From a virus (taxonomy: Duplodnaviria; Heunggongvirae; Uroviricota; Caudoviricetes): 13,431 nt of DNA. The stretch spans positions 1 to 13,431 of IMG/VR virus record IMGVR_UViG_2617270968_000009, one strand, 5' to 3'. The position numbers were made by a program, and so were the translations under genes. Shown one piece after another: positions 6,208-12,275 of the stretch. How positions within the stretch are numbered: position 1 is the stretch's first letter; every line of letters starts with the position of its first letter. A model generated the notes under the pieces. It was given only the letters and a program-made list of their open reading frames with translations, ran no database searches and was not told the origin of the DNA.

Positions 6208-6656
6208 AGCGATTATTCGTAATTGCTCCACTCTTAGTGTTGGTTGGATGCGCACAAAATATATCGCCAAATAGTTATTCTGTTGGCTCTGTGGGCATGG
6301 TTAATCGAACTATCGCTGGTACAGTTATTAGTGCCAGGGGGGTTGATATCAGTGGGACTTCCGCGTTAGGCGGGACTGCTGGGGCTGCCGTGGGGGCAAC
6401 CGCTGGTTCTGCGCTTGGTGGGGGAGTTCGTTCTAATATCGTTGGTGCCGTTGGTGGTGCGGTCATTGGTGGTATTGCCGGGGCAGCAATCGAATCTTCA
6501 GCAACAAAACAAACAGGCATGGAATATGTTGTCGAAACTGAGAATGGGAATTTAATGACCATTGTTCAAGGCAAAGATCCGTTATTTACTCAAGGAAGTA
6601 AGGTCCTTGTTTTATACGGAAACCCTTCTCGCATAATAACAGACCCGCGTCACTAA
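6204..6656 (+). CDS. Glycine-zipper outer-membrane lipoprotein, SlyB/Pcp-like (150 aa)
   Basis: Lipoprotein signal MKRLFVIAPLLVLVGC; central Gly/Ala-rich glycine-zipper segment (GGTAGAAVGATAGSALGGGV...GAVGGAVIGGIAGAAI) followed by a C-terminal beta-rich tail, the architecture of SlyB/Pcp-family lipoproteins; translationally coupled to the upstream lipoprotein. Confidence 0.8.
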   Translation: MKRLFVIAPLLVLVGCAQNISPNSYSVGSVGMVNRTIAGTVISARGVDISGTSALGGTAGAAVGATAGSALGGGVRSNIVGAVGGAVIGGIAGAAIESSATKQTGMEYVVETENGNLMTIVQGKDPLFTQGSKVLVLYGNPSRIITDPRH

Positions 6657-6748
6657 CATACCTTTTGATTTTGTAAAATCAATTCGTAATAATAAAGTCA
6701 TCGGAGCTTGAACAACTCCGGTGACTTCTGCGCTAAACGGGGACGTTT

Positions 6749-6850: not shown

Positions 6851-7302
6851 ACCTCCCACAAGACGGCATCAAATTACATCGCGGCAACTTCACCGCTATC
6901 GGCCAGCAGATCCAGCCTTATCTGGAGGACGGAAAATGCTTTCGCATGGTGCTTAAACCGTGGCGCGAGAGACGCAGTCTTTCCCAGAATGCACTCAGCC
7001 ACATGTGGTACAGCGAAATCAGTGAATACCTCATCAGCAGGGGTAAAACGTTCGCCACTCCAGCTTGGGTAAAAGATGCTCTCAAACACACATATCTCGG
7101 TTATGAAACCAAAGACCTGGTTGATGTCGTAACCGGTGATATCACCACTATCCAGTCGTTACGCCATACCTCCGATCTTGATACCGGAGAGATGTATGTC
7201 TTCCTGTGTAATGTTGAAGCCTGGGCGATGAATATTGGCTGCCACCTGACTATTCCGCCGAGCTGCGAGTTCCAGCTGCTGCGCGATAAGCAGGAGGCGT
7301 AA
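6847..7302 (+). CDS. ybcN: NinB-family recombination protein (DLP12 YbcN-like, DNA base-flipping protein)
   Basis: 151-aa ORF with GTG start and GGAGGTG Shine-Dalgarno; sequence recognised as E. coli YbcN/NinB-like ([13 protein letters not shown] motif region). Confidence 0.85.
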
Positions 7303-7472: not shown

Positions 7473-7755
7473 TTTGAGAAAAGCAGCGCGTGGTCGGGAA
7501 TGCCAGGTAAGAATCCCTGGCGTATGTAATGGCAACCCTGAAACGTCTGTACTGGCACATATCCGGCTGGCTGGATTGTGCGGCACCGGTATTAAACCGC
7601 CAGACCTTATTGCCACCATTGCCTGTTCTGCCTGTCACGCCGAAATCGACCGCCGCACGCATTTTGTCGATGCTGAGCACGCAAAAGAATGCGCGCTGGA
7701 AGGTATGGCGAGAACGCAGGTTATCTGGCTGAAAGAGGGGGTAATCAAGGCGTGA
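7465..7755 (+). CDS. ybcO: YbcO-like nin-region protein (Cys/His-rich, putative nuclease, 96 aa)
   Basis: ATG at 7465 with AGGAGG Shine-Dalgarno 5 nt upstream ([37 protein letters not shown]...); the track's longer 109-aa version starts upstream inside ninE. Confidence 0.85.
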
Positions 7756-8114
7756 ATACTTACCACATCACACTACCCTGGCCTCCGAGCAATAATCGCT
7801 ATTACCGCCATAATCGCGGGCGCACGCACATCAGCGCAGAGGGGCAGGCATACCGCGATAACGTCGCCCGAATCATTAAAAACGCAATGCTGGATATCGG
7901 CCTGGCTATGCCTGTGAAAATCCGCATTGAGTGCCACATGCCGGATCGCCGTCGCCGTGACCTGGATAATCTGCAAAAAGCCGCTTTTGACGCACTCACT
8001 AAAGCAGGTTTCTGGCTGGATGATGCTCAGGTCGTTGATTACCGCGTTGTGAAGATGCCTGTTACCAAAGGTGGGAGGCTGGAACTGACCATCACCGAAA
8101 TGGGGAATGAATGA
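7752..8114 (+). CDS. rusA: RusA Holliday-junction resolvase (120 aa)
   Basis: GTG start overlapping the ybcO stop (GTGA); protein [119 protein letters not shown] recognised as RusA. Confidence 0.9.
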
Positions 8115-8336: not shown

Positions 8337-8720
8337 ATGCGTGATATTCAGATGGTTCTTGAGCGTTGGGGATCGTGGGCGGCTAATAATCATGAAGATG
8401 TGACCTGGTCGTCCATTGCCGCCGGTTTTAAGGGATTAATTACTTCAAAAGTAAAATCTCGCCCGCAATGTTGTGACGATGACGCGATGATCATTTGCGG
8501 GTGCATGGCCCGTCTGAAAAAGAACAACAGCGATTTGCACGATTTATTAGTAGATTATTATGTAGTCGGTATGACATTCATGTCACTGGCAGGTAAGCAT
8601 TGCTGCTCTGATGGTTATATCGGGAAAAGGTTACAGAAGGCTGAGGGTATAATTGAAGGGATGTTAATGGCATTAGATATCCGGTTAGAGATGGATATCG
8701 TTGTTAATAACTCTAATTAA
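8337..8720 (+). CDS. quuD: Late-gene antiterminator Q (DLP12 QuuD-type, 127 aa)
   Basis: ATG at 8337 with GGAG 7 nt upstream; protein [26 protein letters not shown]... with Cys-rich segment ([17 protein letters not shown]); position immediately upstream of the lysis region. Confidence 0.8.
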
Positions 8721-8747
8721 TATGCCAGTTGTTTACTAAAAGTTATT

Positions 8748-8771
8748 AAAAATGGGGCGTTGAGACGCCCC
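8748..8771 (-). terminator. Intrinsic terminator for the minus-strand nmpC transcript
   Basis: Plus strand aaaaat-ggggcgt-tgag-acgcccc; on the minus strand this is a 7-bp GC stem followed by ATTTTT. Confidence 0.5.
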
Positions 8772-8859
8772 CAAAAATAAAGGGTAATATATAACAGAAG
8801 GTTTATATAGTTAGAAGCAAGGTTGTGCTTCTAAAGGAAGTGGCTTGAGGGAGCCACTT

Positions 8860-8900
8860 ATATGTTGGGGAGGCAACGCCTCCCGCAACATATCTTTTTC
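8860..8900 (+). terminator. Strong intrinsic terminator on the plus strand, downstream of Q (possible tR' or operon-end terminator)
   Basis: 15-bp interrupted stem atatgttg-gggaggc / gcctccc-(g)-caacatat (8860-8893) followed by CTTTTTC; ends 10 nt before the nmpC stop codon. Confidence 0.55.
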
Positions 8901-8909
8901 GTAATCAGA

Positions 8910-10007
8910 TTAGAACTGGTAAACCAGACCTACAGCAACGATGTCATCAGTGCTTACACCGAGTGCTTTAGTGAAGTCATTTTTGTCAAGCAGGTTGATT
9001 TTGTAATCAACGAAAGTAGACATATTTTTGTTGAAGTAATAGGTTGCACCTACATCAACATATTTGACTAAGTCCTGATCGCCCCATACTCCAAGATCCT
9101 TACCTTTAGATTGCAGGTAAGCAACGGACGGACGCAGACCGAAATCGAACTGATATTGTGCAACAGCTTCGAAGTTTTGAGCTTTATTAGCAACGAAGTG
9201 ATCAGCAAATACAGTCATATTCTGGGTTTCAGAATAGGTAGTGGCCAGGTAAATGTTGTTAGCGTCATATTTCAGACCTGCGGCCCAAACTTCTGCATTT
9301 TTACCGGAAGCAAATACTTCAGGAAGAACTTTCCCTGCATTAACTTGAGTGTCGGTACGATCAGATTTCGCATAAGTTGCACCGATACCGAATCCTTCGT
9401 ATTCATAGGTAGCAGAGAAACCGAAGCCATCACCGTTACCTTCAGTGTAGTTATCGAAATCGCTACGATCGTTTTTGCCTTGGTACTGAGCAGCAAAGTT
9501 CAGACCATCAACCAGACCAAAGAAGTCGTTGTTACGATAGGTTGCAACACCAGTGGTGCGACCAGTCATGAACACATCTGTTTGGGTCCAGGTATCGCCA
9601 CCGAATTCTGGCAGAACGTCAGTCCACGCACCGATGTCGTATGCTACACCGTAGTTACGGCCGTAATCGATGGAGCCGTAGTCACCGAATTTCAGGCCAG
9701 CGAAGGCAAGACGGGTTTTATCTTTGGAGGAACCTTGAGATTCAGCGCGGTTGCCTTTGAATTCATATTCCCACTGACCGAAACCAGTCAGTTGATCGTT
9801 GATTTGGGTTTCACCTTTGAAGCCAAGACGGGCATAAGTAGTATCACCATCATCTGCATCATTAGAGGAGAAGTAGTGCTTAGCATTAACTTTCCCGTAC
9901 AGATCCAGCTTGTTACTGTCTTTATTATAAATTTCAGCTGCCTGAGCAGACATCGCCATCAGTACTGATGCAGCTACAGCAGAAATTGCCACTGTTAATT
10001 TTTTCAT
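8910..10007 (-). CDS. nmpC: Outer-membrane general porin NmpC/OmpD-type (intact, 365 aa)
   Basis: Signal peptide [23 protein letters not shown] then AEIYNKD..., aromatic/Gly-rich beta-barrel repeats, C-terminal ...VGLVYQF; AAGGG Shine-Dalgarno upstream; uninterrupted (no IS element). Confidence 0.92.
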
Positions 10008-10376
10008 CGTGAGCCCTTTTTTTTGAACTATTATTAAAAAATGATGTCACTGCGCGATAAATATTCATCTAATCAATGTGATTATTTCAAGATGTAAGTT
10101 TTGGTTTCTCGTTTGATTTGTGAAGTAGATCTCTATTTTTATCTGAACTTTTTTCTATCGAATCCTATTCATAGCTCTTGGCTGAATAAAAATAAATCTA
10201 TTAGCCAATTTATATTAACGGCTGTTATTTATAAGCGCTCTATAATTTGAAGGTTCAATTTAAATCAGCTAAAATAACACTGGAAATTATTTGTTGGTTA
10301 TTTGTTGAGATTTGCTTATGTATTTGTAGTGGTGTTTTCAATACTCGGTAGCATTCTCGCAAATATCATTTAGTGG

Positions 10377-10405
10377 TTTACGTACGTAAAAAATTGGTTA
10401 TGCTG
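10377..10405 (+). promoter_or_regulatory. Candidate sigma70 promoter (TTTACG, 16-nt spacer, TATGCT), possible late promoter pR'
   Basis: Hexamers each match consensus at 4 of 6 positions; located about 30 nt upstream of a strong terminator and about 180 nt upstream of the holin gene, the geometry expected for pR'-tR'. Confidence 0.25.
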
Positions 10406-10434
10406 TTAAGAGTGGTTACTTCGTCACACAGCTT

Positions 10435-10467
10435 AAACCCGCCGTCGAGCGGGTTTTTCCATTTTTT
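10435..10467 (+). terminator. Intrinsic terminator upstream of the lysis cassette (candidate tR')
   Basis: Stem aaacccgc / gcgggttt with loop cgtcga (10435-10456) followed by TTTTTCCATTTTTT. Confidence 0.55.
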
Positions 10468-10579
10468 GAGTCTCGATATTAGCTGATAACCCAATACCTG
10501 AGTTATTCACTGACTCCGAGTCTGTTACGTTTCGTAGTATTCCCTCAATTTACACCCGCTTTGTCTGCGAGGTGGGGTT

Positions 10580-10795
10580 ATGAAATCCATGGATAAGTTA
10601 ACAACGGGTGTCGCCTATGGCACCTCAGCAGGTAGTGCCGGGTACTGGTTTTTACAGCTGCTAGATAAAGTCACGCCCTCACAGTGGGCGGCAATTGGAG
10701 TGCTGGGTAGCCTGGTATTTGGCCTGCTGACGTACCTGACAAACCTTTATTTCAAGATTAAAGAAGATAAGCGTAAGGCTGCGAGAGGTGAATAA
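10580..10795 (+). CDS. essD: Class II holin / pinholin, S21-type, with dual-start motif MKSM (71/68 aa)
   Basis: 71-aa [74 protein letters not shown]; two transmembrane segments; Met1-Lys2-Ser3-Met4 dual start; immediately upstream of the endolysin gene. Confidence 0.9.
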
Positions 10796-11292
10796 TGTCG
10801 CCATCATTACGCAAGGCTGTAGCAGCTGCTATTGGTGGTGGGGCTGTTGCCATAGCGTCTGTGCTCATCACTGGTCCGAGTGGTGACGATGGTCTGGAAG
10901 GTGTCAGCTACATACCATATAAAGATATCGTTGGCGTATGGACTGTATGTCACGGGCATACAGGAAAAGACATCATTCCCGGTAAAACGTATACCGAAGC
11001 AGAATGCAAAGCCCTCCTGAATAAAGACCTTGCCACTGTCGCCAGACAAATTAACCCGTACATCAAAGTCGATATACCGGAAACAACGCGCGGCGCTCTT
11101 TACTCGTTCGTCTACAACGTGGGTGCTGGCAATTTCAGAATATCGACGCTTCTTCGCAAAATAAACCAGGGTGATATCAAAGGCGCATGTGATCAGCTAC
11201 GTCGCTGGACATATGCTGGCGGTAAGCAATGGAAAGGTCTCATGACTCGTCGTGAGATTGAGCGTGAAATCTGTTTGTGGGGTAAGCAATGA
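10795..11292 (+). CDS. rrrD: SAR endolysin (signal-anchor-release lysozyme, R21-type, 165 aa)
   Basis: N-terminal weakly hydrophobic Gly/Ala-rich SAR segment ([20 protein letters not shown]) followed by a lysozyme domain; start overlaps the holin stop; recognised as DLP12 RrrD / phage 21 R-like. Confidence 0.9.
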
Positions 11293-11750
11293 ACAGAGTA
11301 ACCGCGATTATCTCCGCTCTGGTTATCTGCATCATCGTCTGCCTGTCATGGGCTGTTAATCATTACCGTGATAACGCCATTACCTACAAAGCCCAGCGCG
11401 ACAAAAATGCCAGAGAACTGAAGCTGGCGAACGCGGCAATTACTGACATGCAGATGCGCCAGCGTGATGTTGCTGCACTGGATGAAAAATACACGAAGGA
11501 GTTAGCTAATGCGAAAGCTGAAAATGATGCTCTGCGTGATGATGTTGCCGCTGGTCGTCGTCGGTTGCACATCAAAGCAGTCTGTCAGTCAGTGCGTGAA
11601 GCCACCACCGCCTCCGGCGTGGATAATGCAGCCTCCCCCCGACTGGCAGACACCGCTGAACGGGATTATTTCACCCTCAGAGAGAGGCTGATCACTATGC
11701 AAAAACAACTGGAAGGAACCCAGAAGTATATTAATGAGCAGTGCAGATAG
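11289..11750 (+). CDS. Rz: Rz inner-membrane spanin (i-spanin, 153 aa)
   Basis: [60 protein letters not shown]... near-identical to remembered lambda Rz; ATGA overlap with the endolysin stop. Confidence 0.92.
11509..11691 (+). CDS. Rz1: Rz1 outer-membrane lipoprotein spanin (o-spanin), embedded in the +1 frame of Rz
   Basis: 60-aa [27 protein letters not shown]... with lipobox VVGC and proline-rich mature region ([15 protein letters not shown]), wholly inside Rz. Confidence 0.88.
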
Positions 11751-11781: not shown

Positions 11782-12075
11782 TTATTGTGAGCAATACACA
11801 CGCGCTTCCAGCGGAGTATAAATGCCTAAAGTAATAAAACCGAGCAATCCATTTACGAATGTTTGCTGGGTTTCTGTTTTAACAACATTTTCTGCGCCGC
11901 CACAAATTTTGGCTGCATCAACAGTTTTCTCCTGTCCAATTCCCGAAACGAAGAAATGATGGGTGATGGTTTCCTTTGGTGTTACTGCTGTAGGTTTGTT
12001 TCCAACAGTAAACGTCTGTTGAGCACATCCTGTAATAAGCATTGCCAGAGCGGCAGAAAACAACATTTTTTTCAT
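11782..12075 (-). CDS. bor: Bor lipoprotein (serum-resistance moron, 97 aa)
   Basis: True start is the ATG at 12075 (MKKMLFSAALAMLITGC lipobox) with AGGA Shine-Dalgarno; the track ORF extends upstream to 12123; recognised as lambda Bor. Confidence 0.92.
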   Translation of the reverse strand: MKKMLFSAALAMLITGCAQQTFTVGNKPTAVTPKETITHHFFVSGIGQEKTVDAAKICGGAENVVKTETQQTFVNGLLGFITLGIYTPLEARVYCSQ

Positions 12076-12275
12076 CTTATTATCCTGCATTGTTAAAAAC
12101 GGCAGAATCCTATGTGACAACAATTAAACGATAGTTAAATGGATTGATGAAAATTAAAACTATATAGGTGTACGCTCAGACTATTGGAGGAAGTTGGGGA
12201 CACTCAGAATCCTGTGGAATGAAATAAACCGGTCTATCCGTCTATTACCCTTTTAGCTGCGCTGTATCGTCGCCG

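Follow-up and report, generated by a model that had tools for sequence, protein, structure and literature searches.

The DNA analysed here, a stretch of 13,431 nucleotides referred to below as the window, comes from a lambdoid prophage of the DLP12/PA-2/434B type and holds its late-control region. The features that bear on late control are collected in Table 1. A Q antiterminator gene is followed by a porin gene on the opposite strand, by a short segment that combines promoter-like and terminator-like elements, and by a set of lysis genes. The Q protein encoded in the window equals QuuD of E. coli K-12 in position and length, is 77-80% identical to the 144-aa Q proteins of VT2-Sakai, Min27 and Stx1 phages, and, as a distant relative, was matched to the Q21 chains 6p18/6jnx with an E value of 2e-6; the Pfam grouping PF06530 to which it belongs corresponds to the Q21/Q933W family (Yin et al., 2019). 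The lambdoid Q-dependent late cassette as described by Yin et al. (2019) comprises a Q gene upstream in the same orientation, an active sigma-70 promoter with an embedded Q-binding element, a terminator that is read through in dependence on Q, and late genes. In the window, a PF06530 Q gene lies upstream on the same strand, not adjacent and separated by 1.65 kb of reverse-oriented cargo, a hairpin with a U-run is found at 10435-10467, and holin, endolysin and Rz genes (10580-11750), identified by Pfam and by the annotation of 434B, follow directly downstream. The holin reading frame has in-frame ATG codons at 10580 and 10589, three codons apart (MKSMDK...), which is the dual-start motif of the S21 antiholin/holin and is annotated as such in 434B and phage 21.

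Table 1. Positions of genes and predicted control elements in the window.
Feature	Position	Strand	Basis or remark
rusA	7689-8114		Pfam
Q antiterminator gene, quuD-like, 127 aa from ATG	8337-8720	+	PF06530, E 9e-53; ORF from TTG 8322
Strong hairpin with CUUUUU tail, between Q stop and convergent porin 3' end	8860-8899	+	MFE -21.3 kcal/mol, z = -6.5; context, outside the unit
Porin gene, lc/nmpC type	8910-10007	-	Pfam Porin_1, E 1e-156
Perfect 14-bp palindrome TTTACGTACGTAAA, overlapping the -35; A-tract to 10393	10377-10390	.	Candidate Q-binding element
-35 hexamer TTTACG	10377-10382	+	Direct reading; identical in VT2-Sakai, there within the annotated putative late promoter
Spacer, 16 nt	10383-10398	+	Direct reading
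-10 hexamer TATGCT	10399-10404	+	Direct reading; conserved in homologues
Conserved initial transcribed block TAAGAGTGGTTACTTCGTCACACAG	10407-10431	+	96% identical where Q is only ~50% identical
Predicted transcription start A10411 (possibly G10412)	10411	+	Equals L003:6460/6461 (VT2-Sakai)
Intrinsic terminator, tR'-like	10435-10467	+	Stem +25 to +46, U-run to +57
S21-type holin gene	10580-10795	+	Pfam PF04971
SAR-type endolysin/phage lysozyme gene	10795-11292	+	Pfam PF00959
Rz spanin gene	11289-11750	+	Pfam PF03245
bor	11782-12123	-	Pfam

Over the 593 nt that separate the porin from the holin gene, the window shares 98-99.7% identity with phage 434B and with several ECOR-derived phages, and 94% with PA-2. 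In 434B, which is propagated as a phage, the late region consists of the DLP12-type Q-nmpC::IS5-holin segment acquired from DLP12, and the 434B record carries no annotation for the late promoter. In K-12 the segment is present as quuD-nmpC::IS5-essD, and it was found in 3726 of 5426 complete E. coli genomes. A porin gene placed between Q and the late promoter is also seen in PA-2, in 434B/DLP12 and at 75 IMG/VR loci. The unit lies 1.65 kb from Q because the minus-strand porin gene with its own signals sits between the Q stop codon and the palindrome.

Direct reading of the sequence places the promoter hexamers and the 16-nt spacer where a preliminary description of this DNA, made from its letters, had put them (10377-10404). 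That description had called the hexamers weak, and indeed they score 4/6 each and 8/12 in sum, which is below the cut-off of the promoter scan, so that the site was not listed. Promoter sites of 8/12 quality occur 59 times in the window as compared to 75 +/- 8 times in block shuffles, and taken alone the hexamers are not above chance. The promoter is credible because of homology and conservation, and not because of its hexamers. The predicted start at 10411/10412 is located 7 nt past the -10 hexamer, and A10411 corresponds to a K-12 coordinate of about 577,229. A full-text literature search for the K-12 start coordinate and for essD together with quuD returned nothing useful.

When positions 8700-10600 of the window were compared by BLAST with the VT2-Sakai locus (L003), one match was obtained, in which 10376-10458 aligns with L003 6425-6506 (77.1% identity over 83 nt, E 1.2e-11), and within 8700-10600 this is the only part that matches VT2-Sakai and Min27. 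On the Sakai side the match coincides exactly with three annotated features that follow Q, namely the putative late promoter, the Q-utilization site and terminator number one. The VT2-Sakai record places the putative late promoter at L003 6426-6453, a putative Q-utilization site at 6467-6474 and two possible terminators at 6486-6508 and 6689-6717. The start of Sakai PR' has been mapped by dRNA-seq, the 3' end of its RNA was located 258 nt downstream by Term-seq, and the RNA is cleaved by RNase E in GU/AUU at +173 (Sy et al., 2020, PMC7547250). Counting back from the second terminator's T-run (6712-6717) and from GUAUU (6631-6635) gives A6460 or G6461 as the Sakai +1, and the -10 hexamer TATCAT lies 7 nt ahead of it. 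The mapped Sakai start aligns to A10411 in the window, in agreement with the earlier proposal of a start near 10411. Outside the unit, the window Q is homologous to Sakai up to about codon 125; from there on homology is missing, and it sets in again precisely at the palindrome's left edge.

The -35, palindrome, A-tract, -10, start block and first hairpin of the Stx phages 933W, VT2-Sakai (Sp5) and Min27 are thus homologous to those of the window, and their Q proteins come from the same clade as the window Q. The surroundings differ. In Stx phages the late unit overlaps the 3' end of Q, the Q stop codon falls within the palindrome, and the unit is followed by a StxS body of about 200 nt, a second terminator at +258, tRNA genes and stx, whereas in the window the unit stands 1.65 kb from Q behind the reverse-oriented porin gene, possesses the first hairpin only and ends 113 nt before the holin gene. 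A StxS locus with its 258-nt leader, its tR' and its 74-nt 3' sRNA released by RNase E is not present in the window, where homology to Sakai ends at 10458 (L003 6506). In Sakai the Q frame enters the palindrome and its TAA stop is part of the CGTAAA arm; at L003 6417-6438 the last Q codons ...AGT TTA CGA TCG TAA themselves form the -35 and the palindrome.

The terminator scan lists a hairpin at 10435-10456 with 8 pairs, 5 of them G-C, and a loop of 6 nt. Its arms are AAACCCGC (10435-10442) and GCGGGTTT (10449-10456), its loop is CGTCGA, and it is followed by TTTTTCCATTTTTT up to 10467. Folding of the RNA from 10411 to 10467 gave the terminator stem in the MFE structure as well as in the centroid structure, the latter at -12 kcal/mol (z = -2.0 for the whole RNA). 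Scan and folding agree with the strong intrinsic terminator that had been described about 30 nt past the promoter. The holin start, earlier given as about 110 nt beyond the terminator, is the ATG at 10580, and no second terminator was found in the window sequence between 10467 and the holin gene. The Sakai counterpart of this hairpin, at about +27 to +49, is contained in the 258-nt StxS_L detected from native PR' (Sy et al., 2020); because it lies inside a detected transcript, this first hairpin cannot be fully efficient, and a substantial share of polymerases reads through it without induction. RNAs of about 50 nt probably escaped the libraries of Sy et al. (2020). A common G-to-T variant at the position matching window 10451 in the 3' arm, GAGCTGG for GAGCGGG, was seen in PA-2 (L002 ~1769) and in at least 38 other loci; the central G-C pair is lost and the predicted stability drops from -12 to about -6.5 kcal/mol.

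According to folding, the leader RNA would consist of a 5' stem, a single-stranded linker and the terminator with its U-tail. The 5' hairpin, GUGG/NCAC at +2 to +17, has G-C, G-U or A-U as its fourth pair and G-A in five sequence types, and most of this stem is fixed by the pattern used for retrieval, which limits how far the variation can be read as covariation. No Rfam family was matched by the leader at gathering thresholds. Among permissive matches, those to Trp leader, STnc370, sroH, P9 and RNAI cover only the generic terminator stem and were discarded. The isrK family (RF01394) aligned end to end with 10382-10459 at 11.8 bits (E 1.1-4.1), far under its gathering score of 50, so that membership is not supported and homology is not established by this score. 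IsrK, the leader RNA of Salmonella Gifsy-1, is like the predicted leader a short terminated RNA from an antitermination-regulated prophage promoter. The 5' end of the isrK consensus, GCaCCcGCAAAAU, resembles the palindrome and A-tract of other classes, and a distant homology may exist.

To delimit the family of such units, IMG/VR and one genome per species were scanned for the transcribed block, IMG/VR was scanned for the palindrome, and phage records were added. A search of IMG/VR for close relatives of the Q protein had yielded only copies of about 99% identity, with a constant arrangement and no added diversity; the diversity came from the DNA pattern scans. In this way 238 late-promoter units were collected, 85 of them distinct, from Escherichia, Shigella, Citrobacter, Yersinia, Serratia, Kosakonia, Trabulsiella, Tatumella, Ewingella and other hosts. 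The register from -45 to +20 is free of indels. Among the first 82 distinct units, T-12 is conserved in 74, A-11 in 80, T-7 in 79 and G-6 in 81, and these four columns fall outside the retrieval pattern; the A-tract at -23 to -19 is conserved as well. A hairpin was counted as terminator-like if it had five or more contiguous pairs, with three or more being G-C, as well as a loop of 3-8 nt and a T-run. Such a hairpin, with its start between +24 and +37, is present in 69/85 distinct units and in 5.4% of random 70-nt windows. Eleven of the 16 units that fail this rule are point mutants of the same stem, and at least four unrelated stem sequences occur at the same place after the start. As the -10 at a fixed distance and the terminator behind the start are both conserved, they are selected features of the unit family. 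A PF06530 Q gene lies upstream on the same strand within 3 kb in 210 of the 238 units, and in 174 of these 210 the unit is set 0.15-3 kb from Q with cargo between. The conserved block was also found in more than 100 porin-free contexts, including Stx phages, phiP27 and PhiR5_1. In phage 1H12 (L086 6269-6330), whose Q is 86% identical to the window Q, a class-A-like promoter, GTTTACAATCGTAAAAA ... TATGAT, is located 1.9 kb past Q; behind it stands a near-consensus -10-like TATAGT in place of the conserved TAAGAGTGGTTAC block, and there is no early hairpin. Since both the block and the hairpin are lacking in 1H12, the transcribed module is exchangeable.

The -35 hexamer of the window is the left arm of TTTACGTACGTAAA, of which this is the sole perfect copy in the window. 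At the matching position Sakai has the palindrome TTTACGATCGTAAA, and phages with other Q proteins have GCGGTCCGC, GCGTACGC, GGAATTCC, TGTTATAACA, TTCGTTACGAA or GTAATTAC. In PhiR5_1 the transcribed block is 96% identical to that of the window and Q is 52% identical. When 81 distinct upstream Q proteins were clustered at 70% identity, 12 clusters were obtained, each of which pairs with one palindrome family (adjusted Rand index 0.90); unlike the palindromes, the types of downstream flank are shuffled among the Q clusters. The co-variation of Q and palindrome could be due in part to physical linkage, and it persists despite the displacement of most Q-linked units from Q. The only mismatch between Q and palindrome was observed in an IMG/VR prophage (L039; 6122-6150, ~6890-6929), in which an IS1 end, GGTAATGACTCCAACTTATTGATAG..., lies between the A-tract and the -10, so that the insertion splits the palindrome off the rest of the promoter.

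These comparisons make the palindrome at 10377-10390 a candidate Q-binding element. The preliminary description had proposed to search for such an element between the -35 and the -10 by comparison with other phages; a candidate did emerge that co-varies with the Q clade, overlapping the -35, and the repeat of phage 21 style is absent from the spacer. In phage 21 the Q-binding element (QBE) is a direct repeat, ATTGAGCA and AATGAGCA, between -35 and -10, a repeat that the window spacer at 10383-10398 does not contain. The candidate of the window differs from it in being a palindrome over the -35, for which there is no structural precedent. A direct repeat of TGGTTA (10394-10399 and 10413-10418) was also considered as a QBE of phage 21 style and was rejected, as its first copy is missing in Sakai and in other classes. 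Among the papers searched, none describes a QBE of the Q933W branch. More generally, we propose that the -35 palindromes of this branch (TTTACGnnCGTAAA, GCGGTCCGC, GCGTACGC, GGAATTCC, TGTTATAACA, TTCGTTACGAA and others) are Q-binding elements which fall into at least six specificity classes, each evolving with its own Q clade, that they are bound symmetrically, unlike the direct-repeat site of Q21, and that the left edge of the element is a preferred insertion point for reverse-oriented cargo (porin, lipocalin and candidate defence genes) which leaves late control undisturbed. To this proposal as a whole we give even odds.

A close relative of the arrangement, solved structurally, is that of phage 21 (PDB 6P18/6P19/6P1A, 6JNX), in which a Q of the same family PF06530, a promoter with embedded Q site, a terminator to about +50 and an S21-type holin cassette are ordered as in the window, where the Q site is a candidate. 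Its record (OL657228) annotates TTGACA as the -35 and CACTAT as the -10, a QBE in the spacer that is made up of two direct repeats of 8 bp, the start, TAAGCTG as the pause element (+2 to +8) and a terminator covering +3 to +50, and its leader RNA folds in line with the annotated terminator. For the Q family of phage 21, a leader that ends at a terminator after about 50 nt is thus documented. The two systems differ in that phage 21 Q is only about 30% identical to the window Q over 80 residues and in that the transcribed block is not the same. With the lambda region comprising pR', qut, 6S RNA and tR', the window unit would share the logic of a late promoter that is constitutively active, of a short leader ended by a terminator and of a Q protein loaded at the promoter, whereas lambda Q belongs to the unrelated family PF03589 and the lambda region has no sequence similarity to the unit. 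The late leader of lambda is 194 nt long.

Taken together, these data indicate that 10377-10467 is, with a probability of roughly 0.85, the late promoter pR' of a DLP12/PA-2/434B-type prophage with its Q-loading region and a promoter-proximal terminator, served by the Q protein of the Q21/Q933W family encoded at 8337-8720. The lambdoid promoter-terminator unit before the holin gene that had been put forward in the preliminary description is in this way supported by homology to Stx phages, by the Q family and by the geometry of phage 21. From the analogy with phage 21 and Stx phages we infer promoter activity of the window sequence, Q binding, pausing and Q-dependent read-through. Sigma-70 RNA polymerase would start constantly at about A10411, and without Q most transcripts would end at the hairpin and U-run (+25 to about +57) as an RNA of about 50 nt, leaving the holin, endolysin and spanin genes silent unless read-through occurs. 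Q made from the early operon would bind promoter DNA, most likely at TTTACGTACGTAAA, and would load onto polymerase held in the conserved initial transcribed block, with the result that the terminator is read through into the lysis genes. As a candidate pause element, TACTTC at 10417-10422 (+7 to +12) is weakly -10-like and is without the final T normally needed by sigma-70 region 2; the window and most variants share it. Within the conserved block AGAGTGGTTAC(T/A)T(C/T)G(C/T)CAC, TACATT, a fair -10-like hexamer, occupies +7 to +12 in the 933W type only, and in Sakai it overlaps the annotated putative Q-utilization site. By the same analogy, polymerase would pause near +23, just ahead of the terminator stem. 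The porin gene, upstream of pR' and on the opposite strand, would never be crossed by the late transcript.

Other readings of the segment were weighed against the late promoter. In lambda, phage 21 and Stx phages no more than about 100 nt separate Q from the pR' downstream of it, and the gap between Q and porin in the window contains several hairpins, including the strong one on the plus strand, so that the real late promoter might lie directly after Q (8721-8909), with late RNA running antisense through the porin gene and with 10377-10467 as a relic or an extra terminator. However, the Sakai pR' region has no match in 8700-10375, the promoter scan lists no plus-strand candidate in 8721-8909, and the class-specific palindrome is found in the window only at 10377; on these three grounds a late promoter directly after Q was rejected. 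Moreover, palindrome, -10 and start block are intact and holin-proximal in at least 75 porin-carrying loci, and displacement from Q with cargo between is seen in 174/210 Q-linked units, which makes the reading as a whole very improbable. The 1986 record of PA-2 (J02580) bears on a different proposal, that the segment is a regulatory region of the porin gene with a CRP site, since it annotates a misc_binding feature 'CRP' at L002 1730-1750, inside the unit and equivalent to window positions ~10409-10429. Only one half-site (TCACA) fits the CRP consensus, the site lies about 400 nt upstream of the porin start, and the same block is present in the porin-free contexts mentioned above, so that this proposal is scarcely credible.

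It is also conceivable that the hairpin serves mainly as an insulator against transcription from the AT-rich porin-holin spacer and that the hexamers are without a role in the prophage. An RpoE-regulated promoter of the DLP12 lysis cassette has been reported, whose primers and -121 to +650 numbering put its +1 near window position 10056 (PMC7918800); this spacer (nmpC/essD) is listed as a 'promoter island', and transcripts that start there must pass 10435-10467. An insulator would leave unexplained the conserved -10, the palindrome that tracks Q and the mapped start in Sakai, and the unit stands directly after Q in phages which have no porin-holin spacer upstream. As the main role of the hairpin insulation is quite improbable, yet the two roles are compatible and not exclusive. 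Finally, the main product might be a trans-acting regulatory sRNA, constitutive, of about 50 nt and similar to StxS or IsrK, made besides or instead of late-gene control. The PR' leader of Stx phages is an Hfq-binding sRNA and it has been proposed that sRNAs commonly arise from such leaders (Sy et al., 2020, PMC7547250); the predicted stem-linker-terminator architecture and the weak full-length match to isrK are in line with this. On the other hand, the window lacks the StxS body (+50 to +258) with its terminator, no Rfam family reached its threshold, and the 5' stem of the leader is without clear support from covariation. We consider an sRNA as main product unlikely and retain the late promoter pR' as the reading of 10377-10467.

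The unit, very probably a Q-controlled late promoter, is an ordinary representative of a known kind, is extremely widespread in E. coli and is a homologue of the mapped Stx-phage promoter; the textbook picture of Q antitermination is unchanged by it. DLP12 Q reportedly controls the essD promoter, a result attributed to Rueggeberg et al. (2013), and part of the picture of Q and late promoter in DLP12 may thus already be known. The placement of start (K-12 ~577,229) and terminator offers a handle on the silencing of the DLP12 lysis cassette and predicts a constitutive leader RNA of about 50 nt. A map of promoter elements against Q clades would help to predict which co-resident prophages can activate one another, for instance whether stx is switched on by a DLP12-type Q. 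What goes beyond the earlier claim are the candidate palindrome classes that track Q clades and the candidate role of the gap between Q and pR' as a site for reverse-oriented cargo, and the layout of the unit accounts for morons such as lc/nmpC that are found upstream of pR' in reverse orientation.

This gap (window 8721-10376; also L086, L088 and L094-L196) is occupied by different cargo in different phages: a GIY-YIG gene in phiP27, and blc together with a ybgA-like gene in 1H12. Another 16 representative loci hold diverse cargo, almost always on the minus strand. Some of it matches candidate defence systems, namely a KAP-NTPase that matches PDC-S20 (E 1e-177) and an HNH protein that matches PDC-M68A (E 7e-27). 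The C-terminal tails of Q differ between phages exactly at the point of cargo insertion. The cargo of the gap is expressed from its own promoter and is uncrossed by the late transcript. In the window, a minus-strand terminator-like hairpin, GGGGCGTCTCAACGCCCC followed by ATTTTT, is located at 8754-8771, and together with the plus-strand hairpin at 8860-8899 it looks like a stop acting in both directions that separates the early operon from the porin gene.

Some further observations concern the spacer between the porin and holin genes. A sigma-E-like motif is formed by GAACT at 10025-10029 and TCACT at 10047-10051. Transcripts from about 10056 would have a 5' UTR of about 520 nt and would cross the pR' unit and its terminator. 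The AT-rich part of the spacer, 10010-10370, is the region described in K-12 as the nmpC/essD 'promoter island' (PMC3661553), and in the PA-2 record two CRP sites are annotated within the porin-holin spacer.
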